Below are positions 1,866 to 20,550 of a DNA stretch of 64,000 nucleotides, one piece after another; position 1 is the first letter of the stretch, and each line of letters begins with the position of its first letter. Source of the DNA: a virus (Duplodnaviria; Heunggongvirae; Uroviricota; Caudoviricetes); IMG/VR virus record IMGVR_UViG_2671180676_000004, positions 1-64,000 of that record. One strand, 5' to 3'. A program made the position numbers and the translations under genes. Under the pieces are notes generated by a model. It did not search any database. It was not told where the DNA came from and saw nothing but the letters and a program-made list of their open reading frames with translations.

Positions 1866-2360
1866 ATGGCACGTCAAACCTATTTCACTTCTGCAACTAA
1901 ACGTCCTCGTTCACTACGTCAAATTTTGGCCGAATTATTTAGCGGTCGTGTTCTGTCACGTCTTGATGAACTAGAGACTGCCGTTCGGTTGCTGAATGAA
2001 CGTTTAGATAAGCAAGCGTCAGTTGTTGCGAACGTGGGGGCGATTGTTACCTCTGGTTCTTCACGCGAAGCGAAAAGTACACGGCCTTTAGTGAAGGAGA
2101 AAAACAACAAGGACAGTTCGAATGGAAAATTTTCAAAGAAAGAGGCTGAAACCAATGGCCTACGTTCTCATTATAGTTTCACTGGCGACGGTAGCCGTTC
2201 CAGCCGGCCAGAGCCTTTTGATGCCGGGTTCATCCATCACCACACCTCCGTCGACGACAATTACCACCACTCCAGTAGAGCGTCCTGTCACTCTGGATGG
2301 GATGACGGTGGATGCGATACCTCAAGTTCATCCAGTTACTCAGGATCATGCTGTGACTAA
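1866..2360 (+). CDS. Hypothetical protein; C-terminal half may be out of frame
   Basis: N-terminal 85 aa protein-like; C-terminal part low-complexity while overlapping frame 2122..2373 encodes a TM/Thr-Pro-rich segment. Confidence 0.3.
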   Translation: MARQTYFTSATKRPRSLRQILAELFSGRVLSRLDELETAVRLLNERLDKQASVVANVGAIVTSGSSREAKSTRPLVKEKNNKDSSNGKFSKKEAETNGLRSHYSFTGDGSRSSRPEPFDAGFIHHHTSVDDNYHHSSRASCHSGWDDGGCDTSSSSSYSGSCCD

Positions 2361-2369
2361 GGCGGTTGT

Positions 2370-2567
2370 ATGAACTGGTTTTCAAATCACTTTGGAAAAA
2401 CTTGGCTGGCGATTCTGGCTTTCATAGCTCTCATGGCCGCCGGTTGGGTATCGAACATTGTAAAACTCGTTTGCTCTGGTGATCTCCAGTTTCAGGCTGG
2501 TATGACCTTGGCTCGTGTTGTTGGGATTTTTGTTTTTCCAGTCGGTTCGGTACTTGGTTATTTCTGA
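2370..2567 (+). CDS. Small membrane protein (65 aa)
   Basis: Two hydrophobic segments; ATG overlaps end of frame 2122..2373. Confidence 0.4.
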   Translation: MNWFSNHFGKTWLAILAFIALMAAGWVSNIVKLVCSGDLQFQAGMTLARVVGIFVFPVGSVLGYF

Positions 2568-2621
2568 CGGTTGTTAGTGCATATGCATTGACCGTCTTTT
2601 CGTAAGCAATTCATGTAACTA

Positions 2622-2637
2622 GAAAACAACTTGTTTT
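2622..2637 (+). promoter_or_regulatory. Motif A palindrome (gaaaacaacttgtttt)
   Basis: Perfect 7-bp inverted repeat, about 30 nt upstream of ATG 2661. Confidence 0.45.
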
Positions 2638-2660
2638 AACAAATAACAAAAGGAAAGCAC

Positions 2661-3086
2661 ATGTTAGGTTTATTCAAAAAGAAAACTCGTAAAGCTGTTA
2701 TCGAGGTCAAAAAAATGGAGAACCGAGATGCGGTTGAAGCCACCGTGTGGGGCGCGTACATGATCTCCTATGCCGATGGCACATGCGACGCAAAGGAAAT
2801 TTCCATTCTTGAGAAAACAATTGCAGCTCTGCCTGCGTTTTCTCCGTTTGCTGGTGAGATTGCCCAAATGAGCGCCAATATCCGTGCTCAATACGAAGCC
2901 TCACCGCGCCGCGCTAATGCCCAGGCTTTACGTGAGCTGGCTGATGTGGCCGGGACTAATGATGCAGTAGATGTACTGTGTCTGTGCCTTGATATTGCCG
3001 ACCAAGACGGTATTGGCGAACAAGAAGAGCTGGCCCTGAAAAAGATCGCACAGGCGCTTCAGTTGTCACTGGATGCTTATCTCTAA
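2661..3086 (+). CDS. TerB-like domain protein
   Basis: Two repeats of the h-x-ADG … E-E-L pattern (YMISYADGTCDAKEIS / CLDIADQDGIGEQEEL) typical of the TerB fold; SD AAAGGAAAG. Confidence 0.5.
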   Translation: MLGLFKKKTRKAVIEVKKMENRDAVEATVWGAYMISYADGTCDAKEISILEKTIAALPAFSPFAGEIAQMSANIRAQYEASPRRANAQALRELADVAGTNDAVDVLCLCLDIADQDGIGEQEELALKKIAQALQLSLDAYL

Positions 3087-3350
3087 TGCTTGAGAGATTC
3101 CGGCTTGTGACCGTCATTGCTCTTCTGGTGATGGCGGTGTTGGTGGATTTTACGGGAAAGATGATGTCTGTCATTTCTGATGGCGTCCTCATTGGTCTGG
3201 CGATCTACTTCGCTTATCCGCTAGTCCGTAAAGCAACGTGTTAATGACAAGGGCCAAATGGCCCTTGTGTTTCGTTGACCGAAATAGAGAGTTTGCACCT
3301 TTACGTTTAGCTTGCTCCCCTTTTATGCCACATCACAATAAAGCCAATAA

Positions 3351-3383: not shown

Positions 3384-3953
3384 ATGTGCAAGAAATGCAA
3401 AGCGATAGCTGATGAACAAAACGCCTTATTCGAAGAAATGGATGCTAATGAACTGGTCAAAATGTTAGCCATTCTTCGAGGAATAGAAGACGTTTCCATA
3501 TTTGAGAGAGTGGTTACAGCACTTAATTTTGAGTCCACCTTTGAAGAGCCAACTCAGGTTGTAGCTTTAGCACATCATTTCGGTGTTCATTATCTTGCTG
3601 AAAAAGAGCGCGCTGATAAGTTGCAGGCGACTTTGGATATGGTGAGCGAGACTCAACGAACTGATGACACTAACAAGAGTGAGGCGATTATTGCCAGCAA
3701 AGATCGTGAAATTGCTGGGCTTAAATCCTCTCTAACGATGTTGATGTCTGCGTTCAATCTTATATCTTCTCAGGCGGGTTATAAAATGCCATCACTAAAC
3801 AGCGATGATCCGATGGCCGTTCGTCAGCTTTTGGGAGCAATGGCCGACCAACTCGACGACACAAAGAGTCGGCTTGAAGACATGATGCGTGAGTTAAGCC
3901 ATCGACATAACCTCGCAACACAGCCACACAAAGCCTTTCAAAGCTCTAATTGA
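3384..3953 (+). CDS. Hypothetical protein (189 aa)
   Basis: ORF with SD-like AGGAAA; followed by hairpin tatggccg…cggccata at 3959-3980. Confidence 0.5.
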   Translation: MCKKCKAIADEQNALFEEMDANELVKMLAILRGIEDVSIFERVVTALNFESTFEEPTQVVALAHHFGVHYLAEKERADKLQATLDMVSETQRTDDTNKSEAIIASKDREIAGLKSSLTMLMSAFNLISSQAGYKMPSLNSDDPMAVRQLLGAMADQLDDTKSRLEDMMRELSHRHNLATQPHKAFQSSN

Positions 3954-4008
3954 TCTGATATGGCCGCATGATCGGCCATATTGTGTTGATAAAAAACAAG
4001 GATGAAAA

Positions 4009-4290
4009 ATGGCATACGGTACAGGGATTTACAACAATAAAGGAATTAACGTTACTGGCTTCCTTACTCCTATTTTTTTTCTTGATCGATTTACTGCGTC
4101 ATCAGGCTCTAAGACGTACTCCAATCCGCCACCGGGTAAATCGCTACATGCCGTGTGGTCATTGATGCCTCTTAACAACGACAACTACATTAATTTACCT
4201 GTTCCAACAGTTACTATTAATGGAAATACGGTTAGTTGGTCAAATTTATATACGGGGCTTGGTTCTTACATATACACATACTGGGGATAA
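4009..4290 (+). CDS. Hypothetical protein (93 aa)
   Basis: ATG 4009 with SD CAAGGA 6 nt upstream. Confidence 0.4.
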   Translation: MAYGTGIYNNKGINVTGFLTPIFFLDRFTASSGSKTYSNPPPGKSLHAVWSLMPLNNDNYINLPVPTVTINGNTVSWSNLYTGLGSYIYTYWG

Positions 4291-4292
4291 TT

Positions 4293-4907
4293 ATGTTCGG
4301 GATGTCAATTACTCAATCAGATGGAAGTTTGTGGATGAGTCCAGAATTTACTCCGCAAAATCTGATTAATAAAGGGACAATGTCTACATCTAAAGGTTCT
4401 GTTTTTCAAACATCAATCCCATCAAACAAATCATGCTTTTTCTTCATAAAAAGCAGTAATAAGGCGAACATGATGTTTATTCATGAGCATAGTAACGGAT
4501 ACAATGCTCTCAGATTGCATCAGGTAAATGGTAGCCCCGGAACAATAACAGTTTATGCTTTTTCTGATATGGTGTTACCACATTCTGGCTATGGCATTGC
4601 CATGTATAACAGCGCAGGCGCAATGGTGTATCACGGTGAGATGATGCCCCTTGATGCGAAACTTATCACTATTTCTGACCCTCAATTTACAATAGATATG
4701 GGGTATCCATGTGCGGTAATGCCTGCTATGGTTGGGGTATATAACTATAGACGAACCGATTACGACAGACCTGTCTATGTAACAATGACAGGTGCAACTG
4801 AAAACCAAGTATATAACGGTCAATGGTATTCCGGTAATGTCACATGGGATATTAAGAAGATTTATACAAACAAAATTCTGGTGATAAATACCTCCAAGTA
4901 TGATTAG
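4293..4907 (+). CDS. Hypothetical protein (204 aa)
   Basis: ATG 3 nt after the upstream stop; frame already open from 4236, so possibly one gene split by a frameshift. Confidence 0.4.
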   Translation: MFGMSITQSDGSLWMSPEFTPQNLINKGTMSTSKGSVFQTSIPSNKSCFFFIKSSNKANMMFIHEHSNGYNALRLHQVNGSPGTITVYAFSDMVLPHSGYGIAMYNSAGAMVYHGEMMPLDAKLITISDPQFTIDMGYPCAVMPAMVGVYNYRRTDYDRPVYVTMTGATENQVYNGQWYSGNVTWDIKKIYTNKILVINTSKYD

Positions 4908-5545: not shown

Positions 5546-8500
5546 CTATATCTGCCCACCTACTCCTTTGAACTTTTCAATAAACGTGACGATTTTCTGG
5601 AAAACCGTCTGTTTTTTCGTTTTATATTGCGGGTTTAACGGACTAAGTTTTGGTAATGTCTCGTTTAATTCTGTGCCATTTTCGGTGGCGTATTCGCGTT
5701 TTAAAGACGTGCGAATATAGCGTTTCGCCGCCTCTTCATTGAGATTTTCTTCTTTAATCAACGCTTCTGCTTCACGTAGCTGTTCGTGTTGAGCAAAGGT
5801 AAAGAACGCGTCAATGATGCTGGCTTTGTCTGGTAAATCATCCAGGTTCGTTTGCTGAATAAAATCGACCACCAGGCCCTCTTTAGCACGGTTCCCTAGG
5901 CTTGAACGAATTAAGCGTTTGACCTCTTCGATCATTTCGCCCTTGCCTTTATTTTGTCTGTTGTGTTCGAAAATCAGTCCAAGGATATAATCCAGGTTTA
6001 TTTCCTGAGACTTCAGCAAATCGACCTCAAAAACTACGTCATCCCAGTCAGTGGTTGATTTCTCTTTTTTCTCAGCTTCTTTCTCACGGCGCTGCCAGTC
6101 GCGAATATCGTTATAGGCAGAACGATAATCCTGAATCTTGCGATCAGCAGGGAGACGAATTGTTTGCAATTCAGCGAACTTTTCATCATCCACATAATGT
6201 TCTGCTTTGAATTTTTCTACCGCAACAGGATCGCTAAGATCGATTTGTTGCAGGGCTTTTAGCGTGGCAAATTCATCATAGTTTTGCAGGATGTTCTCGG
6301 CACGCAGGTATTCGCCAAACAGTTTAACGAAGTCTTTCTTCTCTTTTTCACTTTCAATACTGGCAGGGTCAGGGAACCGTTGTTCCAGTTCTGAAACTAC
6401 TGCCATAAAGCCGCGTTTAGCTTCACCTGTAGCAGCATCAGTAAAGCCTTCCATATACTCTGCATAACTCTTTTCTAACACTACATTTTTGGTGTTTTTG
6501 TCACCAAACAGCGTTATGGCATCGATGGTTGAGCGTTCCAGATCGCGGAAAGTGACGATATTACCGAAGGTTTTAGTCGCGTCATAAATGCGGTTGGTAC
6601 GGGAAAATGCCTGCATCAGGCCGTGAAAACGCAAGTTTTTATCGACGAATAGCGTGTTTAATGTTGGAGCATCGAAGCCGGTTAAAAACATCCCCACGAC
6701 GATTAACAAGTCAACATCCTGATTTTTAACCCGCTGAGCCAGGTCCCGATAGTAGTTCTGAAAACCCTTGCTATCAGTGCTGAAATTCATTTGAAAATGG
6801 TCGTTATACTCACGAATTGCAGCGTCCAGAAACTCTTTAGCACTGCTGTCCATTGCACTGGTATCAAAAGATTCATCGGATATTTCACCAATGGCATTTT
6901 GTTCTTCATTAGCGGCAAAGGAGAAGATTGTCGCAACACGCAGTGGTTTATAGGTAGCAGATTTATTAGCTGCTTCCTCTTGTAACCGTTTAAACGTCGC
7001 GTAATAGGCTTTCGCGGCATCCACGCTGCTCACTGCCAACATAGCATTAAAACCTTTTGAGCCAGGGAAGGTACGGTGGGTTTTCTGGCGGAAATTATTC
7101 AGAATATATTGCGTGATTTCCTGAATACGCATGGGATGAAGAAACGCCTGCTGATTTTCAGCCGCACTCAGTTTTTTCTCGTCAGTTTCTGTCTCTAAAG
7201 ACTTAAACTGTGGCCGCACATCGTTGTAGTCCACCTTGAATTTGAGCACTTTTTCGTCACGAATCGCATCGGTAATTACATACGAATGCAATTCACGACC
7301 AAATACGCTGGCGGTTGTTTCTGAGCCTAAGGCGTTTTCCGGGAAAATAGGGGTGCCGGTAAAACCAAACTGATAATAACGTTTGAATTTCTTCTTCAGG
7401 TTTTTCTGCGCTTCTCCAAACTGGCTGCGGTGGCATTCATCAAATATAAACACCACTTGCTGATTATATACAGGCAGGTCGCTTTCTGCTTTCATCAGGT
7501 TATTGAGTTTCTGAATAGTAGTGACGATAATTTTGTTATCGTCCTTATCCAGATTTCGTTTAAGGCCTGCGGTATTTTCCGAGCCGTTGACGCTGTCTGG
7601 CGAAAAACGCTGATATTCCTTCATGGTCTGGTAATCGAGGTCTTTCCTGTCGACCACAAAGAAGACTTTATCAATAAAGTCCAGCTCTGTTGCCAGACGC
7701 GCGGCTTTAAAGCTGGTGAGGGTTTTACCAGAACCGGTAGTGTGCCAGATATACCCACCGCTTTCCGGTTTTGACCAGTTCTTCGCTGTAAAGGAACTCT
7801 TAATTTTCCACAGAATGCGCTCGGTGGCGGCAATCTGGTACGGTCGCATCACCAGTAGCGTCTGACTACTGTCAAAAACGCTGTAGTTCACCAGAACATT
7901 CAGCAGAGTATGTTTCTGGAAAAAGGTAGCGGTAAAGTCTTTGAGGTCTTTAATCAGCGTGTTGTCTGATTTCGCCCAATTCATGGTGAAGTCAAAACTG
8001 TTTTTATCGCGCTTTGTGGTGTTGGCAAAATAACGGGTATCAGTGCCGTTGGAAATGACGAACAGCTGCAGATACTTAAACAGGGAATTTTCGCTGTTAA
8101 AACTCTCTTTACTGTAACGATGTATCTGGTTGAAAGCCTCACGAATCGCCACCCCGCGTTTTTTTAGTTCGATTTGCACCAGCGGTAAACCATTAACCAG
8201 GATCGTGACGTCATAACGGTTAGCATGAGAACCCGTCTGTTCAAACTGCTGGATAATCTGCACCTTATTGCGCATGAGATTCTTTTTATCTATCAAATAG
8301 ATGTTCTCAAGTCGCCCGTCGTCAAAAATAAAGTCGCAGATATAGTCGATATGGATTTTACGGGTTTTATCCAGAATACCATCGCTGGGGTTGTCCAGAT
8401 ACTGCTCCGTGAAGCGCCGCCACTCGCTGTCATTAAACATCACACCATTGAGGCTCTGAAGCTGTTCCCGAACATTGGACAGCATTGCCGACTGTGATTT

Positions 8501-8662
8501 TACGGAAATAAATTCATAACCCTGATTCCGCAGGTCCTGAATCAGTTCACGTTCCAGGTCCGATTCGCTCTGGTAGCTGTCGCTTGTTTGCTCAGCTTTG
8601 ATGTACTTATCAAGGACGATAAAGTTATTGGATTCAGCAATGGTGTGTGTTTGATGAGTCAT
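5546..8662 (-). CDS. hsdR: Type I restriction enzyme R subunit
   Basis: 1038 aa; SF2 motifs TGSGKT and DECH ([10 protein letters not shown]); directly downstream of hsdM-hsdS. Confidence 0.9.
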
Positions 8663-8784
8663 AGCGCATCCTTTGTGCCGCCTGGCAAGAGCCGGAAGGG
8701 CGTTAAGAGTGACTTCCGGCGCGTAAAAAAATAGTCTATATACTGACCGGGTGTTAAGGTGGCCCGATCGGTAGCAATGGTCAA

Positions 8785-10023
8785 TTAATTACTGACAGTT
8801 TCAGGTTTCGGGAAACTGAACAGTAAATCACGGTAGTATTCGTATTGTTTCTGGCGCAACTCGATTTCACGCGGGAGACCTTCGGTGATGGAGTTGGTCA
8901 GGGTGTCGAATTTATCGAGCAGAGCAGATATTCGCTCTTGTTTCTGTTTATCAGGCAATGGCACTGGTAATGTTTTTATAATATCTGCATTCAAGTTACT
9001 GACCGACCCGCTATTGATTTTACTTTCCCAATAATTTTTCACCTTTTTTGATGAAAGATAGTGATACAGATAATCAGCATTTAATTTTTCACCAAAATTG
9101 CTGATTGATGCCCATCCATCATGGATAGCTCCGGTTATCCTTAAAATATATGGTCTGCCAAAGCTCATAGAGTTAGAAATGACGAAATCACCGGGGTTCA
9201 AGATTCGCGATTTTTGGGCACCCTCTGCAGTTATTTTTTGTAAGGTTTTGTCAATGTATTTAGAGCCGGGGATAGTATCTCCGATTTTAATCCATGGGAT
9301 ACCATTTCCTTGTTCAGTAAGATAATTAACAATTGGCCTGGGGGATGCCCCACGTTGTATTTTGGCTACTTCTCCCAATGCCTTCCACTCAACCTCACCC
9401 TCTTTAAAACTCAGCAACTGGTCGCGATAGTAGTTGTACTGTTTTTTACGCATGTTAAGCTCAGCGGTAAGCTCAGCGGTAAGTGCAGTAAACTTATCCA
9501 GAATCCGAACAATTTCAGACTGGATGGCAAGGGATTTTCCCGGGGCGCTGGGACAAGGGATGGGTATTTGATAGTTTAAAATTGCATCTTTACTGCCTCG
9601 AGGCATCTTTGCCCCTTTAGCGTGCTGCATACTGTAAGAAAAAAATGAATCCGACGATAATGCATAGTAGAGATATTCTGGACTAATAATTTTTTTACAG
9701 TCTGCTAAAATGCGTATAGCAAGGACATCACCACTGCACCCGCCATTATTCTCCGCCATCCAAACTTTCTTTAAATATGGGCGAATATTACCTAAAAGAA
9801 TATCACCTGGCTCATAGGCAGTTAAACGTGCCGTATTAGGCTGATAGGTGGCGTCAATGCGACCGCCTTTATCAGCAAGGAGATTATCAACGCCAACGAA
9901 TGAAGTGGCATCAAGTTTATCAGCATCAACTTTGGTTGTTGAATACCCGGCGATATCGCCCACTGCTTTCCACTCAACCTCAACCCCATCCAGCAATTTT
10001 TCCAGATAACTCAACTCGCTCAT
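8785..10023 (-). CDS. hsdS: Type I restriction-modification specificity subunit
   Basis: 412 aa with two target-recognition halves, each ending in a conserved coiled spacer (…[16 protein letters not shown] / …[16 protein letters not shown]); overlaps hsdM by 4 nt. Confidence 0.85.
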
Positions 10024-11582
10024 TTCTGCACCTCGCAGCCTTCAATTTCAGCCACAATCGCATCAATATCTTTACGCAACTGGTCGATTTTGCTGACCGT
10101 GGTTTTCAGCTCTGCATTCAACTCAGCGATATCGATAATTTCGCGAGTATCTTTCACTTCAACATAGCTGCTCACCGACAGGTTATAGTCATTAGCAACA
10201 ACAGTCTCAAACGCAACAGATTTCGCCAGATGAGCAACATCTTCCTTGCTGGCAAATACCTGCATAATTTTTTCTATATGGGCATCGGTCAGAATGTTGT
10301 TGTTAGTCTCTTTTTTGAACAGTTCGCTGGCATCAATAAACTGAACTTTGGTATCCGTTTTATGTTTAGACAGCACCAGAATATTGACGGCAATGGTGGT
10401 GCCAAAGAACAGGTTCGGTGCCAGTGAAATCACGGTTTCGACATAGTTATTGTCAACCAGATACTGACGGATTTTCTGCTCCGCGCCGCCACGGTAAAAA
10501 ATGCCCGGGAAGCAGACAATCGCAGCACGACCTTTGGCAGAAAGATAGTTCAGCGCATGTAATACAAACGCAAAGTCAGCTTTGGATTTGGGGGCCAGAA
10601 CGCCAGCCGGGGCAAAACGTTCATCGTTAATCAGCGTCGGGTCATCGCTGCCAATCCATTTCACCGAATACGGCGGGTTAGAAACGATGGCATCAAACGG
10701 TTTTTCATCTCTGAAGTGCGGCTCAGTCAGCGTATTGCCCAGCTTGATATCAAACTTGTCGTAGTTGATGTTGTGCAAAAACATGTTCATACGCGCCAGG
10801 TTATAGGTCGTATGGTTGATCTCCTGACCGAAAAAGCCTTCTTCGATGATGTGGTCATCGAACTGCTTTTTCGCCTGCAACAACAGCGAACCGGAACCTG
10901 CTGCCGGGTCGTAGATTTTGTTAACGTGGGTCTGGCCGTGCATTGCCAATTGTGCAATCAGCTTAGAGACGTGCTGCGGTGTAAAGAACTCGCCGCCTGA
11001 CTTACCAGCATTCGCGGCATAGTTAGAAATCAGGAACTCATAGGCATCGCCGAACAGGTCAATCTGATGTTCGTTGAAGTCACCAAGTTTTAACCCTTCA
11101 ACCCCTTTCAGAACCGCAGCCAGGCGGGCATTTTTATCTTTAACGGTGTTACCCAGGCGGTTACTGGTGGTATCGAAATCAGCAAACAAACCTTTGATGT
11201 CAGCTTCTGAAGGATAACCGTAAGCAGAACTTTCGATAGCAACGAAGATGCTGTTTAAATCTGCGTTCAGTCTGTCATTGGTATTTGCTTTCGCCGCTAC
11301 GTTGCAGAAAAGCTGACTGGGGTAGATGAAGTAGCCTTTAGTTTTGATGGCATCGTCTTTAATGTCATCAGTAATTACGCTGTCATCCAGTTTCGCATAA
11401 CAGATACTGTCATCACCGGCTTCAATATAGCTGGAAAAATTTTCGCTGATAAAACGGTAGAAAAGTGCGCCCAGAACGTATTGCTTAAAATCCCATCCAT
11501 CGACCGAACCCCTGACATCGTTAGCAATTTGCCAGATTTGACGATGAAGCTCTGCACGTTGTTGAATACTTGTCATTTTCAT
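10020..11582 (-). CDS. hsdM: Type I N6-adenine DNA methyltransferase subunit
   Basis: 520 aa; SAM motif [10 protein letters not shown] and catalytic NPPYS. Confidence 0.9.
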
Positions 11583-11706
11583 CCACTTATTTCAGGCTTA
11601 TGTAATTGGCGGTGATTCTACAGCAACTTGGATGCTTTAGCAGTTCGGACATTAGGCAACGAATGACCTAATTAGAGCTTTTTGGAAAAGCGGTATTGTC
11701 GGTGCG

Positions 11707-11931
11707 ATGATAGCTATGTTTGGGTGCGCGATGGTGCAATACAATGACGGTGAAAAGGTAAGCATCCAGTCTGATGGCTGGTATGGGCTGGATAGCCTGC
11801 AAAAAACCGCAGATAAAGCCTGTCAGCAATATGGAAAGTCTAAAGCCGTATATCAGCATAGCGCGAACGCTAATCCACATCTCGCGCCCGGCACGGGCGT
11901 TCAGAACACTATTTGGAAATGCGAACCATAA
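11707..11931 (+). CDS. Hypothetical small protein (74 aa)
   Basis: ORF only; no clear SD. Confidence 0.25.
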   Translation: MIAMFGCAMVQYNDGEKVSIQSDGWYGLDSLQKTADKACQQYGKSKAVYQHSANANPHLAPGTGVQNTIWKCEP

Positions 11932-12114
11932 CGCAGGTTGGCTTTTTACATCTTGGGCCGAATACTGATTCCGCGCTAAGTTGTTTGTGCGGAAGTGACA
12001 CTGTGGAGCTTAGAAATAGTAAATACTGGTGGGCAACAAATTGAGCCTTCACACGCTCACCAGCACACACAAAAAATGGTTAAACAGCAAGGGAATTAAT
12101 ATCTCATCGCGACA

Positions 12115-12252
12115 TTAAATAAGCCAGCGCACGCCTCTGTTTATCACTGACTTGAAAAACCATATCAGAACCACGATGAAGACAATCGCCAGCACTTGGC
12201 TAAGAACAGGCGCATTTAAAAATGCACTTAGAAACTGAAAAAATACAATCAT
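12115..12252 (-). CDS. Small hydrophobic peptide (45 aa), type I toxin-like
   Basis: Not in ORF track; minus-strand ATG at 12252-12250 with SD GAGGA; product MIVFFQFLSAFLNAPVLSQVLAIVFIVVLIWFFKSVINRGVRWLI. Confidence 0.35.
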   Translation of the reverse strand: MIVFFQFLSAFLNAPVLSQVLAIVFIVVLIWFFKSVINRGVRWLI

Positions 12253-12708
12253 CAGGGTAATCCTCGTCTAATGTAAAGCTGTGTGCTCTCACGTTGACGT
12301 AGAAACCCAACCTCTATATAGTTGGATTCGGTGAAAGAAAGTCGTTAACGTGAACTTACGGCACATGTTTTCGGTATAAAAATCAGGGAACTGTGAATTC
12401 CTTGATGTAGTTGGGGCCTGTAATGCAGGCCCTATCTATTAATGTCATGATTACATCTCAAATTTTCTCCTTATCATTATTATTTAATAAAATTCAATTA
12501 ATATAATATCCATTTCCTGTGTGTGCAAACACAGTATGAGGAAAATGGCCCCGTTGCAAGTGCATAACTTTGTGGATAACTCTGAAGGCGAATTTACATT
12601 TCGGCGCACCGCAAGCCAGATAAGCTGTGCGCAAAAAGCAATGGGGTGAGAAAAAAACTTTGAAGATATTGCGGCGACTAAATAATAGCCGTTATTCAAT
12701 TATTCTGG

Positions 12709-12972
12709 ATGGGATTTAATATGAACGAATGGAACATAGCAGCCAAAAGCCAGGAAGAAAGGAATAAAGTTAACGTTGACCTGGCTGCCAGGGGGGTTGC
12801 CTACAAAGAGCGATTGAACATACCCGTCATAGCGGAACAGGTAGCCCGTGAGCAACCTGAGAACCTGCGCACCTATTTCATGGAACGGCTACGGCACTAC
12901 CGGCAGTTAAGCCTCCTGCTGCCAAAAGGAAACGATCCGGTATATCAGAAAGAAGATATAGCCAAAAAATAA
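12709..12972 (+). CDS. Hypothetical protein (83-87 aa)
   Basis: ORF; alternative ATG at 12721; immediately upstream of the UmuD'-like gene. Confidence 0.4.
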
Positions 12973-13070
12973 CGCGCCACCAGGCGAGCGCAAAGCATCG
13001 CGCTATTGCACACTTCAAGCATCTTTAATGTATACTGTATGGATAAACAGTACTCTGAGGTGAAAACGCT

Positions 13071-13460
13071 ATGGGCTTCCCTTCTCCTGCGGCGGATTAT
13101 GCTGAGAGTCGTATTTCTCTTGATCAGCAGATAATTAGACATCCTTCAGCGACCTACTTCTTGAGGGCAGCTGATAGTCATCATCGTGAGGGAATATTAC
13201 AGGGTGCATTGCTGGTGGTCGATTCCTCACTTACCCCGGTTGATGGTTCTCTGCTTGTATGCGCTCTGGATGGGGAATATCGCGTAAAAAGATACCGGAA
13301 GTATCCACGTCAGCATCTGGAGGATTTGAGAACCGGTAAGAAGGAAGCATTGCCAAAGGATGACGATGGATGCACGGGCAGCAATGCCGTGTTTGGTGTG
13401 ATCACTCACATTATCAACGACGCAAGAAGTGGCGAGTTTGATGATTGTCCCGTGATGTAG
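13071..13460 (+). CDS. UmuD'-like S24-peptidase domain protein
   Basis: Begins MGFPSPAADY…HPSATYF, matching UmuD from its Cys-Gly autocleavage site onward; Ser and Lys positions kept (ADSH…VKRY); no umuC partner. Confidence 0.6.
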   Translation: MGFPSPAADYAESRISLDQQIIRHPSATYFLRAADSHHREGILQGALLVVDSSLTPVDGSLLVCALDGEYRVKRYRKYPRQHLEDLRTGKKEALPKDDDGCTGSNAVFGVITHIINDARSGEFDDCPVM

Positions 13461-13496
13461 GAGAACTGATTAGGCGGTGCAATGCACCGCCTTTTA

Positions 13497-14597
13497 TCAC
13501 ACTGCGCGGAATGCGATCTCGCCAGGTATTACTTCGCCTTGCCAATACATTTGGGCAGCAACGCGATCTGCGAGGTCACGATAAATAGCCGTAAATTCGC
13601 TATCTGGACGACTAATAACGGTTGGTGTTCCGTTATCCAGATCTTCACGAAGAGAGATATGAAGTGGCATTTGGCCTAACAACTGCGTGTTGTATTTCTC
13701 GGCCAGTTTCTGTGCGCCACCGGTGCCAAAAATTGGCTCGTGATGACCGCAGTTACTGCAAATATGCACACTCATGTTTTCGACGATACCCAGTACCGGC
13801 ACTTCGACTTTTTCGAACATCACAATGCCTTTCTTCGCATCGATCAGCGCGATGTCTTGCGGCGTAGTTACCACAACCGCACCAGTTACAGGAATGTTCT
13901 GCGCCAGCGTCAACTGAATATCACCAGTGCCCGGCGGCATATCGAGAACGAGATAGTCCAGATCAGGCCATAGAGTTTCCTGCAACATCTGCATCAGCGC
14001 CTTGCTGGCCATCGGTCCACGCCACACCATTGCATTGTCGTCGGTGACCAGATAACCAATAGAGTTGGTTGCCAGGCCATGAGACATGATAGGTGCCATG
14101 TGAGTACCGTCCGGTGAGGTTGGACGTTGGTTTTCCGCGCCCAGCATGGTTGGAATTGATGGACCATAGATATCGGCATCCAAAATACCAACTTTCGCAC
14201 CTTCAGCAGCCAACGCCAGTGCCAGGTTTACCGCCGTGGAGGATTTACCCACGCCGCCCTTGCCTGAGCTGACGGCGATAATGTTCTTAACGCCATTAAT
14301 GCCTGGTTGGTTTTTGACGCGCTTAAGCGTGGCAATGTTGTACGACAGCTTCCAGTCAATAGCCTTTGCGCCAGTGATACGGAGCAGATCACCACTACAT
14401 TGCTCTTTCAGGTCTTCAAAAGGCTTATTCCACACGAAAGGCATGATTAGTTCGACATGCAGTGTGTCATCCATCAACGCAACATGGTGTAACGCTTTAA
14501 GCGTAGTCAGGTTGTGTTTCAGGGTTGGGTGCTGAAAATTAGCCAGCGTACCGGCTACCATTGCTCTCAGGGCATCCGGCGATTTGGACTCGCTCAT
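13497..14597 (-). CDS. apbC: Fe-S cluster carrier ATPase Mrp/ApbC
   Basis: 366 aa; P-loop SSGKGGVGKSST; MinD/Mrp family; divergent from metG as in E. coli. Confidence 0.95.
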   Translation of the reverse strand: MSESKSPDALRAMVAGTLANFQHPTLKHNLTTLKALHHVALMDDTLHVELIMPFVWNKPFEDLKEQCSGDLLRITGAKAIDWKLSYNIATLKRVKNQPGINGVKNIIAVSSGKGGVGKSSTAVNLALALAAEGAKVGILDADIYGPSIPTMLGAENQRPTSPDGTHMAPIMSHGLATNSIGYLVTDDNAMVWRGPMASKALMQMLQETLWPDLDYLVLDMPPGTGDIQLTLAQNIPVTGAVVVTTPQDIALIDAKKGIVMFEKVEVPVLGIVENMSVHICSNCGHHEPIFGTGGAQKLAEKYNTQLLGQMPLHISLREDLDNGTPTVISRPDSEFTAIYRDLADRVAAQMYWQGEVIPGEIAFRAV

Positions 14598-14754
14598 CCC
14601 GTCTCCTTTATTTTAATTTGCGCAATTGTCGCCTTGTAGTGTACTCCAGCTACGACATTTAATCATTTATGAGAAATGCTGTTATCACATGGCAGACATA
14701 AGGCCATTTTGTTACTATCAAGCCCCTTTTCACTACAAAGAAGTAATGCCTACT

Positions 14755-16788
14755 ATGACCCAAGTCGCGAAGAAAATTCTGGTGACGTGCGCGCTGCCGT
14801 ACGCTAACGGCTCAATCCACCTCGGCCATATGCTGGAGCACATCCAGGCTGATGTCTGGGTTCGTTACCAGCGAATGCGCGGCCACGAGGTTAATTTCAT
14901 CTGTGCCGACGATGCCCACGGTACGCCGATCATGCTGAAAGCACAGCAGCTTGGTATCACACCGGAGCAGATGATTGGCGAAATGAGTCAGGAACACCAG
15001 ACTGATTTCGCAGGCTTTAACATCAGCTATGACAACTATCACTCGACGCACAGCGAAGAGAACCGTCAGTTGTCTGAGCTTATCTATACTCGCCTGAAAG
15101 AGAACGGTTTTATTAAAAACCGCACTATCTCTCAGTTGTACGACCCGGAAAAAGGCATGTTCCTGCCGGATCGTTTTGTAAAAGGCACCTGCCCGAAATG
15201 TAAAGCGCCAGATCAATACGGCGATAACTGTGAAGTCTGCGGCGCAACATATAGCCCGACTGAATTGATCGAGCCGAAATCGGTGGTTTCTGGCGCTACC
15301 CCGGTAATGCGTGATTCCGAACACTTCTTCTTTGATCTACCTTCTTTCAGCGAAATGTTGCAGGCATGGACCCGCAGCGGCGCGTTGCAGGAGCAGGTGG
15401 CGAACAAAATGCAGGAATGGTTTGAATCCGGCCTGCAACAGTGGGATATATCCCGCGATGCGCCTTACTTCGGTTTTGAAATTCCGAACGCGCCGGGCAA
15501 ATATTTCTACGTCTGGCTGGACGCGCCGATTGGCTACATGGGTTCCTTCAAGAATCTGTGCGACAAGCGCGGCGATACCACCAGCTTCGATGAATACTGG
15601 AAGAAAGACTCCACCGCCGAGCTGTACCACTTCATCGGTAAAGATATTGTTTACTTCCACAGCCTGTTCTGGCCTGCCATGCTGGAAGGCAGCAACTTCC
15701 GCAAGCCGACCAACCTGTTTGTTCATGGCTATGTGACGGTGAACGGCGCGAAGATGTCCAAGTCTCGCGGCACCTTTATTAAAGCCAGCACCTGGCTGAA
15801 TCATTTTGACGCTGACAGCCTGCGTTACTACTACACTGCGAAACTCTCTTCGCGTATTGATGATATCGATCTCAACCTGGAGGATTTCGTTCAGCGTGTG
15901 AATGCCGATATCGTTAACAAAGTGGTTAACCTGGCGTCCCGTAACGCTGGCTTTATCAATAAGCGTTTTGACGGTGTGCTGGCAGGCGAACTGGCTGACC
16001 CGCAACTGTATAAAACCTTCACTGATGCTGCTGAAGTGATTGGTGAAGCATGGGAAAGCCGCGAATTTGGTAAAGCTATCCGTGAAATCATGGCATTGGC
16101 TGACCTGGCTAACCGCTATGTCGATGAACAGGCTCCGTGGGTGGTGGCGAAGCAGGAAGGACGCGATGCCGATCTGCAGGCGATTTGCTCTATGGGCATT
16201 AACCTGTTCCGCGTGCTGATGACGTACCTGAAGCCGGTACTGCCGAAACTGACTGAACGTGCAGAAGCATTCCTGAATACAGAACTGACCTGGGATGGTA
16301 TCCAGCAACCGCTGCTGGGCCATAAAGTGAATCCGTTCAAGGCACTGTATAACCGCATCGATATGAAGCAGGTTGAAGCACTGGTGGAAGCATCCAAAGA
16401 AGAAGTGAAAGCCACAGCCGCACCGGTAACTGGCCCACTGGCTGACGACCCGATTCAGGAAACTATCACCTTTGACGACTTCGCCAAAGTTGACCTGCGC
16501 GTGGCGCTGATTGAAAACGCAGAGTTTGTAGAAGGTTCTGACAAACTGCTTCGCCTGACGCTGGATCTCGGTGGTGAAAAGCGTAATGTCTTCTCAGGCA
16601 TCCGTTCCGCTTATCCAGATCCACAGGCACTGATTGGTCGTCACACCATTATGGTGGCTAACCTGGCACCACGTAAAATGCGCTTCGGTATCTCTGAAGG
16701 CATGGTGATGGCTGCTGGCCCCGGCGGGAAAGATATCTTCCTGTTAAGCCCGGATGCTGGTGCTAAACCTGGCCACCAGGTTAAGTAA
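14755..16788 (+). CDS. metG: Methionyl-tRNA synthetase
   Basis: 677 aa from [11 protein letters not shown]; class I HIGH (HLGH) and KMSKS motifs; zinc knuckle CPKC…CEVCG; C-terminal tRNA-binding domain. Confidence 0.97.
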
Positions 16789-20238: not shown

Positions 20239-20550
20239 ATGAAAAAATCATTGGTTCTTGGTCTGGACAAAGACCAGAAGAGAAAAGAGAAGCCTGCACT
20301 GGTTGCTCAATTAACTTTGCTAGACATCGTTGCCAATGGAACTTCTATTCGTCTGTTCCGTGAAACAGCGGTGTCTTTCGATAAAAACACCTTTACTCGT
20401 TATGTAATGAATGTTCGTCGCCAGCGTGGAAAAGGATGGGTGGCATTTCAAAGAATGTGGCCGGAACATCAGCTCGAACTGGCCTTGATGGAAGTTAACC
20501 GCGTGGCCCAGCAAGAAATTCAGAGAGCATCAGTGATGGCAATAGCCTGA
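20239..20550 (+). CDS. Hypothetical protein (103 aa)
   Basis: ATG 20239 with SD GGAG. Confidence 0.5.
   Translation: MKKSLVLGLDKDQKRKEKPALVAQLTLLDIVANGTSIRLFRETAVSFDKNTFTRYVMNVRRQRGKGWVAFQRMWPEHQLELALMEVNRVAQQEIQRASVMAIA

Follow-up and report, generated by a model that had tools for sequence, protein, structure and literature searches.

Introduction

The gene described here is of a kind already known, whose experimentally characterised type member is HumD of phage P1. McLenigan et al. are said to have found in 1999 that umuD-defective backgrounds regained mutagenesis and UV survival with HumD, and that the protein formed dimers and bound both UmuC and RecA filaments. P1 HumD is reportedly expressed poorly, with good complementation obtained only from a high-copy plasmid. 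In the GenBank record of P1, humD is entered as 'DNA repair; functionally complements E. coli UmuD′', and a LexA site is annotated upstream of it. P1 HumD is described as a pre-activated UmuD in PMC7092418, and P1 humD is placed among the LexA-regulated SOS genes in PMC9603915.

A humD gene was analysed in a stretch of 64,000 nucleotides of Caudoviricetes DNA (positions 1 to 64,000 of IMG/VR record IMGVR_UViG_2671180676_000004; this whole stretch is referred to as the window). What is added to the description of the family is the documentation of the P1 hot-humD module in SSU5-type phage-plasmids, the apparent decay of the catalytic dyad once cleavage is no longer necessary, and the flagging of a conserved C-terminal tail.

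Gene and product

The humD coding sequence occupies 13071-13460 on the + strand in the list of open reading frames, with an ATG start and 129 codons followed by a stop codon, and encodes a pre-truncated UmuD′-type protein of S24 fold whose N-terminus is MGFPSPAADY. In the alignments to E. coli UmuD and to solved chains, G25 of UmuD, with which UmuD′ opens after cleavage at Cys24-Gly25, pairs with G2 of HumD. The solved chains 1umu, 1i4v and 8gmt matched HumD with E = 7e-23 to 7e-22, the alignment opening at residue one of UmuD′; the best solved-structure match was E. coli UmuD′ 1umu (E = 6.8e-23), and 8gmt is UmuD in complex with the RecA filament. When HumD, P1 HumD and E. coli UmuD were aligned together, S36 and K73 of HumD fell opposite the dyad residues S60 and K97 of UmuD. 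The same alignment gave HumD, relative to UmuD, a four-residue insertion in the variable loop at about residues 96-106 and a C-terminus longer by 10 residues, SGEFDDCPVM.

A TGA stop codon in the humD frame and a GAGG Shine-Dalgarno sequence were read from the sequence on the + strand at 13056-13062 (TGA 13056-13058, GAGG 13057-13060), the former four codons upstream of the ATG and the latter 8-10 nt before it. An in-frame stop codon this close to the start excludes an N-terminal arm or a longer, cleavable precursor, and the short form is, as the sequence reads, the sole form of HumD that can be made here. The sequence-only reading had held that the product begins at the UmuD autocleavage site and is made directly in the shortened form, which the G2-G25 pairing and the upstream TGA bear out; it had also described the middle and C-terminal regions as diverging from UmuD, and these are the regions in which the loop insertion and the ten extra residues were located.

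Family identity and intactness

HumD matched the NCBIfam equivalog model NF051876, 'HumD family translesion DNA polymerase', with 217.7 bits at a cut-off of 120, residues 1-129 aligning to positions 1-129 of the 129-position profile, and Pfam Peptidase_S24 with 39.8 bits at a cut-off of 23.3; both matches are far beyond chance. The UmuD model NF007621/PRK10276 was failed (86.6 bits versus a cut-off of 110), as was the LexA model TIGR00498 (29 bits versus 110.95), of which the S24 part alone matches. The PHROGs label is 'UmuD-like protein'. Identity to HumD of phage P1 is 91% (90.7-91.5%). In tblastn searches against phage genomes, identities were 99% for Escherichia phage Cyrano, 90.7-92.2% for the HumD proteins of P1, P7, RCS47, SJ46 and D6, 70.5% for gp23 of phiKO2 and 67.4% for gp26 of N15. 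When 5.8 billion proteins were searched by word index, 561 clusters matched with E <= 1e-5. Among the clusters listed, most proteins are 126-130 aa long with an MGFPSPA start, many are named 'HumD family translesion DNA polymerase', and the genera represented are Escherichia, Citrobacter, Klebsiella, Enterobacter, Salmonella, Kluyvera and Trabulsiella. The gene at 13071-13460 is an orthologue of P1 humD and belongs to a known, named family, not to a new kind of protein. Some matching plasmid records in RefSeq already use the name HumD, and the record of E. coli plasmid pUTAK-6-1 says 'S24 family peptidase'.

Database entries of 148-167 aa under the name HumD (e.g. P0024, P0048) were also observed. 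They begin MYIQYLYC..., their ATG being located within the LexA box, where ATG TAT ATA CAG TAT TTA TAC TGT translates as MYIQYLYC. To judge from this placement, the long entries are probably start-codon miscalls and not arm-bearing forms.

The absence of umuC, a length below that of UmuD, and a loop and C-terminus unlike those of UmuD could also be accounted for if the open reading frame were a decaying umuD remnant, that is, an N-terminally deleted pseudogene left functionless after the loss of umuC. Against this stand the full-length match to the family model and a dN/dS of 0.055 relative to P1 humD (dN 0.046, dS 0.83); humD is under purifying selection. The gene further has its own Shine-Dalgarno sequence, promoter-like site, LexA box and terminator, and hundreds of Escherichia, Citrobacter, Klebsiella, Enterobacter and Salmonella clusters share its architecture, as do P1, P7, D6, N15 and phiKO2. 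The predicted fold, which is UmuD′-like, argues in the same direction. It was modelled with AF2 on a diverse 54-sequence alignment, which gave a mean pLDDT of 73.9 and values above 80 in the core, with low confidence over the first ~20 residues (block means 55-66), the loop at 98-105 and the last residues; a run on 32 close homologues (pLDDT 56.5) was set aside and the 54-sequence run used instead. The top PDB matches of the model were the UmuD′ structures 1umu and 1ay9 (target-normalised TM 0.74), and next came 8gmt, the structure of UmuD on the RecA filament. A degraded pseudogene fragment, which the sequence-only reading had itself raised, is not what the alignment to UmuD revealed, and the pseudogene explanation is effectively refuted by the conservation data; its remaining probability is negligible.

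Regulatory sequences

A LexA box, TACTGTATGGATAAACAGTA, is predicted at 13033-13052 on the + strand, where such a site had been thought worth searching for in the sequence-only reading. It agrees with the consensus TACTGTATATATATACAGTA at 17/20 positions, and both the CTGT and the ACAG arm are perfect. It was the only site within three mismatches of the 20-mer consensus in the 64-kb window, 0/100 shuffles yielding any, and it can be aligned column for column to the LexA site annotated 5′ of P1 humD. A putative sigma-70-like promoter was located at 13007-13036 on the same strand (TGCACA, an 18-nt spacer and TATACT; 9/12 consensus matches). It is the sole promoter-like site on the + strand between hot and humD, in a region conserved with P1, and its -10 hexamer overlaps the LexA box.

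The gap between humD and the convergent gene apbC measures 36 bp and contains a G+C-rich, intrinsic-terminator-like hairpin at 13472-13497 (+ strand; 9 bp, loop AAU, then UUUUAU). No call was made at this hairpin by the promoter and terminator scanner, and it was revealed by direct folding: the RNA of 13458-13505 folded with -19.1 kcal/mol (z = -4.5), a value equalled by 0/200 shuffles. With a LexA box, a promoter-like site and a terminator of its own, humD is therefore predicted to form a self-contained, SOS-controlled unit.

A CTGT-N8-ACAG site at 20353-20368 (CTGTTCCGTGAAACAG) was considered as a further LexA box and rejected, as it lies inside a hypothetical CDS and has more than three mismatches to the 20-mer consensus; chance alone would yield the 16-mer pattern 0.74 times, and the match is probably fortuitous. 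Rfam searches at gathering thresholds returned no match anywhere in the window.

LexA boxes also stand 5′ of humD in N15-like elements of Klebsiella (TACTGTATGTATATACAGTA) and in P2-like chromosomal prophages of Citrobacter (TACTGGATGGATATACAGTA). In the Citrobacter prophages (L005-L008, 5439-6390) humD is divergent from a dinI homologue across the shared LexA box, and an 80-aa open reading frame is located between the box and humD. The same divergent arrangement of dinI, LexA box and humD was observed in the N15/phiKO2-like linear plasmid prophages of Klebsiella (L009-L011, about 5680-6384), and dinI-humD has the look of an 'SOS module' that recurs among phages. In two of the Klebsiella contigs (L009, 5682-12384, and L010) the region forms a perfect inverted duplication, dinI-humD-sopB-sopA / sopA-sopB-humD-dinI. 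One such contig is 108.6 kb long, about twice an N15-type genome, and the duplication looks like assembly read-through over the hairpin telomere of a linear plasmid prophage.

Carrier and neighbouring genes

With the E. coli plasmid pUTAK-6-1, a circle of 111,466 bp, the window shares at least 99.98% identity. The PGAP annotation of this plasmid lists terminase, portal, capsid, tape-measure and tail genes together with RepB and ParB, and also nrdAB, thyA, dfrA51, dnaE, RecA, ligase, RNase HI and four tRNAs. SSU5-like phage-plasmids of the Cyrano/pLF82 type have been described (PMC9928086), and the carrier of humD is an SSU5/Cyrano-like E. coli phage-plasmid. Genes for a DnaE (L003 22591-26109), a RecA (L003 17365-18438) and a 3′-5′ exonuclease (L001 709-1266) of pUTAK-6-1 itself lie outside the window, and only the last ~270 bp of its DnaB-like helicase gene (L004 2726-4066) lie within it.

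Directly upstream of humD, as in P1, is hot (12709-12972, + strand; PGAP start 12721), which encodes a homologue of the theta subunit of DNA polymerase III (Pfam DNA_pol3_theta, 107.6 bits; NCBIfam PRK10969, 97.4 bits; PHROG 1105). Comparison with P1 by blastn yielded two blocks. Positions 12058-12957 correspond to P1 upfM-hot (P1 locus positions 2346-3232) with 81% identity, and 13022-13459 to the LexA box and humD (P1 locus positions 3951-4389) with 85% identity, the homology ending at the humD stop codon. The two P1-homologous blocks indicate that the SSU5-type element carries the P1 hot-humD module. They are joined by a 64-bp junction (12958-13021) which, by blastn and the P1 annotation, stands where P1 has 718 bp carrying lxr. 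This divergent, LexA-regulated gene thus lies between hot and humD in P1, whereas the SSU5-like element is without it. The two also differ 3′ of humD, where P1 has the phd-doc addiction module and the present element has the terminator and the convergent gene apbC.

In the ~1.1 kb at 11583-12708, which is without a PGAP gene, the sequence from 12058 on is 81% identical to P1 upfM-upfN-upfO. Of the P1 late promoter LPhot, located 5′ of hot, the -10 is conserved here and the -22 box is not.

The P1-like hot-humD block adjoins a type I restriction-modification locus: hsdR, hsdS and hsdM form a complete system at 5546-11582 on the - strand, just upstream. According to the P1 record, the pmgT and phd-doc flanks match DNA beside the EcoDXXI and R124 hsd loci. 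As these P1 flanks match hsd-adjacent DNA and an hsd locus stands beside the P1-like block here, it seems that this P1 region has moved in company with hsd loci in the past.

The next gene 3′ of humD is apbC (13497-14597, - strand), convergent with it, and no umuC follows, as had been noted from the sequence. By PGAP annotation, neither the window nor the remainder of the 111-kb pUTAK-6-1 contains a Y-family polymerase, and the best tblastn match to UmuC and DinB queries over the window and the whole plasmid had E = 0.76. Any polymerase partner of HumD must therefore be the host's UmuC.

At 13497-16788 the divergent genes apbC(mrp) and metG are present as a second copy, with ~90% DNA identity to a chromosomal locus found in 5,426/5,426 complete E. 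coli genomes, and the pair was also located at 223 plasmid places in the same genome collection. An additional methionyl-tRNA synthetase is unusual cargo for a phage-plasmid.

Active-site residues

The conservation of the dyad was examined in relatives with and without the N-terminal arm. Among 21 arm-bearing UmuD-like representatives, which have an Ala/Cys-Gly site immediately ahead of GFPSPA in the protein, the G-S-M motif was almost invariant (G in 20/21, S in 19/21, M in 18/21) and Lys was present in 20/21. The columns were far more variable in 33 pre-truncated proteins, where the nucleophile was T in 10, S in 8, A in 3 and another residue in 12, and the Lys position held K in 16, R in 10, C in 4, V in 2 and F in 1. 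In the 120 closest clusters the nucleophile column read S 76, T 43 and A 2. HumD itself has ADSH at positions 34-37 where its cleavable relatives have G-S-M. The dyad thus decays in pre-truncated relatives, for which reason the Ser and Lys of HumD are probably vestigial; the alignment columns point to an active site that drifts once the protein is made pre-cleaved, under selection that relaxed when cleavage was lost. The sequence-only reading had stated that the Ser and Lys positions are kept. This holds for the present protein (S36 and K73) and does not hold as a constraint on the family, in whose pre-truncated members Thr, Ala and other residues occur, and retention of the two residues is therefore no evidence of protease activity.

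Intermolecular cleavage is known for UmuD, and Ser and Lys stand at the catalytic positions both here and in P1 HumD, as they would if HumD were an active S24 protease in trans whose S36 and K73 brought about the cleavage, in heterodimers, of host UmuD, of LexA or of a phage repressor. The ADSH motif is degenerate in comparison with the near-invariant G-S-M of the cleavable relatives, however, and the variable nucleophile and Lys columns of the pre-truncated proteins are those of a relaxed, vestigial site. Activity in trans was rejected on these conservation data and is considered very improbable.

The C-terminal extension

The SGEFDDCPVM codons at 13428-13457 (+ strand) specify residues 120-129, an extension which UmuD′ lacks. 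In 32 family members of 67-95% identity, E122, F123, D124 and P127 of the tail (...INDARSGEFDDCPVM) do not vary, and conservation of D125, C126 and V128 is 90% or higher, so that the extension is among the best-conserved stretches of the HumD family. Among representatives at 50% identity, the tail was present in 13/28 pre-truncated proteins and in 0/45 arm-bearing UmuD-like ones, a distribution that common descent in a single clade may account for. The C-terminus of some relatives is EFDDTPF or FHDNLPF.

The C-peptide of SSB is DFDDDIPF (PMC3936761), and the HumD tail resembles it loosely in its acidic-aromatic-acidic core and its hydrophobic C-terminal residue. As a doubtful proposal from the sequence, the acidic tail might serve to dock partners and so confer on HumD an activity that is foreign to UmuD′. 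It could occupy SSB-tail-binding pockets on replication and repair proteins, or it could fold into the vestigial active-site cleft in place of the arm. If docking of this kind were true, HumD would regulate replication and repair in the host in a manner tailored to the phage and would be more than a copy of UmuD′.

Proposed role in the SOS response

The element carries an intact member of the HumD family, under purifying selection and preceded by a LexA box, and is without umuC. It is very likely that this HumD is a P1-type, LexA-controlled, ready-made UmuD′ on an SSU5-like phage-plasmid, serving the UmuC of the host. In an undamaged cell, host LexA on the box that overlaps the -10 would keep humD off, as the sequence and the example of P1 suggest. 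DNA damage would lead to RecA*-mediated cleavage of LexA and hence to transcription of humD. Since HumD would be made in the UmuD′ form, RecA*-stimulated autocleavage would not be needed and this slow step would be skipped. HumD would then dimerise and bind the chromosomally encoded UmuC of the host and RecA*, by analogy with P1 HumD, and the three together would act as a translesion polymerase of the pol V kind, copying damaged template, the element's own DNA included, at the cost of mutations. The element would provide no polymerase subunit of its own. For dimerisation, binding of UmuC and RecA*, and translesion activity we infer from the 91%-identical P1 protein, with whose published description the ready-made UmuD′ mimic without a umuC partner proposed in the sequence-only reading agrees.

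In this way HumD would let a temperate element start error-prone lesion bypass at once upon SOS induction, with borrowed host UmuC and with the RecA*-dependent maturation checkpoint bypassed. This would be relevant to mutagenesis and to the evolution of antibiotic resistance in phage-plasmid-bearing E. coli, and pUTAK-6-1 has dfrA51.

A model of HumD as a simple substitute for UmuD′ does not explain the conserved tail or the frequent pairing with dinI or hot that other elements display. Moreover, as P1 HumD is reportedly expressed poorly and complements well only at high copy, bulk mutagenesis may not be its role in nature. HumD could instead be mainly a modulator of RecA* and the SOS response, with UmuC activation as a side effect: it would bind the RecA filament or subunits of Pol III and damp recombination, slow replication, or tune SOS or prophage induction. 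UmuD and UmuD′ bind the alpha, beta and epsilon subunits of Pol III, and UmuD′2C inhibits RecA-mediated recombination. Consistent with such a role are the pairing of humD in N15/phiKO2-like and P2-like elements with a homologue of DinI, a modulator of the RecA filament, across one LexA box, the pairing with Hot, a homologue of Pol III theta, here and in P1, the RecA and DnaE homologues of the element itself, and the presence of 8gmt, in which UmuD lies on the RecA filament, among the best structural matches of the predicted model. On the other hand, conservation is high on the surfaces that HumD has in common with UmuD′, complementation of UmuD′ is on record for the P1 orthologue, and it is from homology that an effect of HumD on RecA* is argued here. 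As the main function, modulation is considered unlikely, the service to host UmuC being preferred, although the modulator and polymerase-cofactor roles are compatible and not mutually exclusive.

Comparison with known systems

The closest systems are HumD of P1 and the corresponding proteins of P7, D6, RCS47 and SJ46, which share with the present protein a length of 129 aa, 90-92% identity and the MGFPSPAADY start, and with its locus the position of the LexA box, hot upstream and the absence of umuC; the tail is EFDDCPV(M/I). The carriers differ, the one described here being an SSU5-like siphovirus phage-plasmid and P1 a myovirus.

N15 gp26, phiKO2 gp23 and the HumD proteins of chromosomal Citrobacter, Klebsiella and Enterobacter prophages are likewise pre-truncated (126-130 aa, 67-74% identity), with an upstream LexA box, a conserved acidic tail and no umuC. 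Their partner is a divergent dinI homologue in place of an upstream hot, many have Thr for the nucleophile Ser, and in Citrobacter the 80-aa open reading frame precedes the gene.

The S24 fold, the Ser and Lys positions and LexA control are shared with UmuD/UmuD′, the accessory subunit of pol V, and with the plasmid proteins MucA, RumA, ImpA and SamA; identity to E. coli UmuD is 44% across the UmuD′ part. Proteins of the UmuD type differ by a 24-residue N-terminal arm, a Cys/Ala-Gly site, RecA*-dependent activation and an operon of the umuC type, none of which HumD has, and the additional loop and the 10-residue acidic tail are in turn peculiar to HumD in comparison with UmuD. The S24 C-terminal domains of LexA and of lambda-type CI are distant members of the same fold (E = 7e-4 to 1e-2), from which HumD differs in being without a DNA-binding domain.
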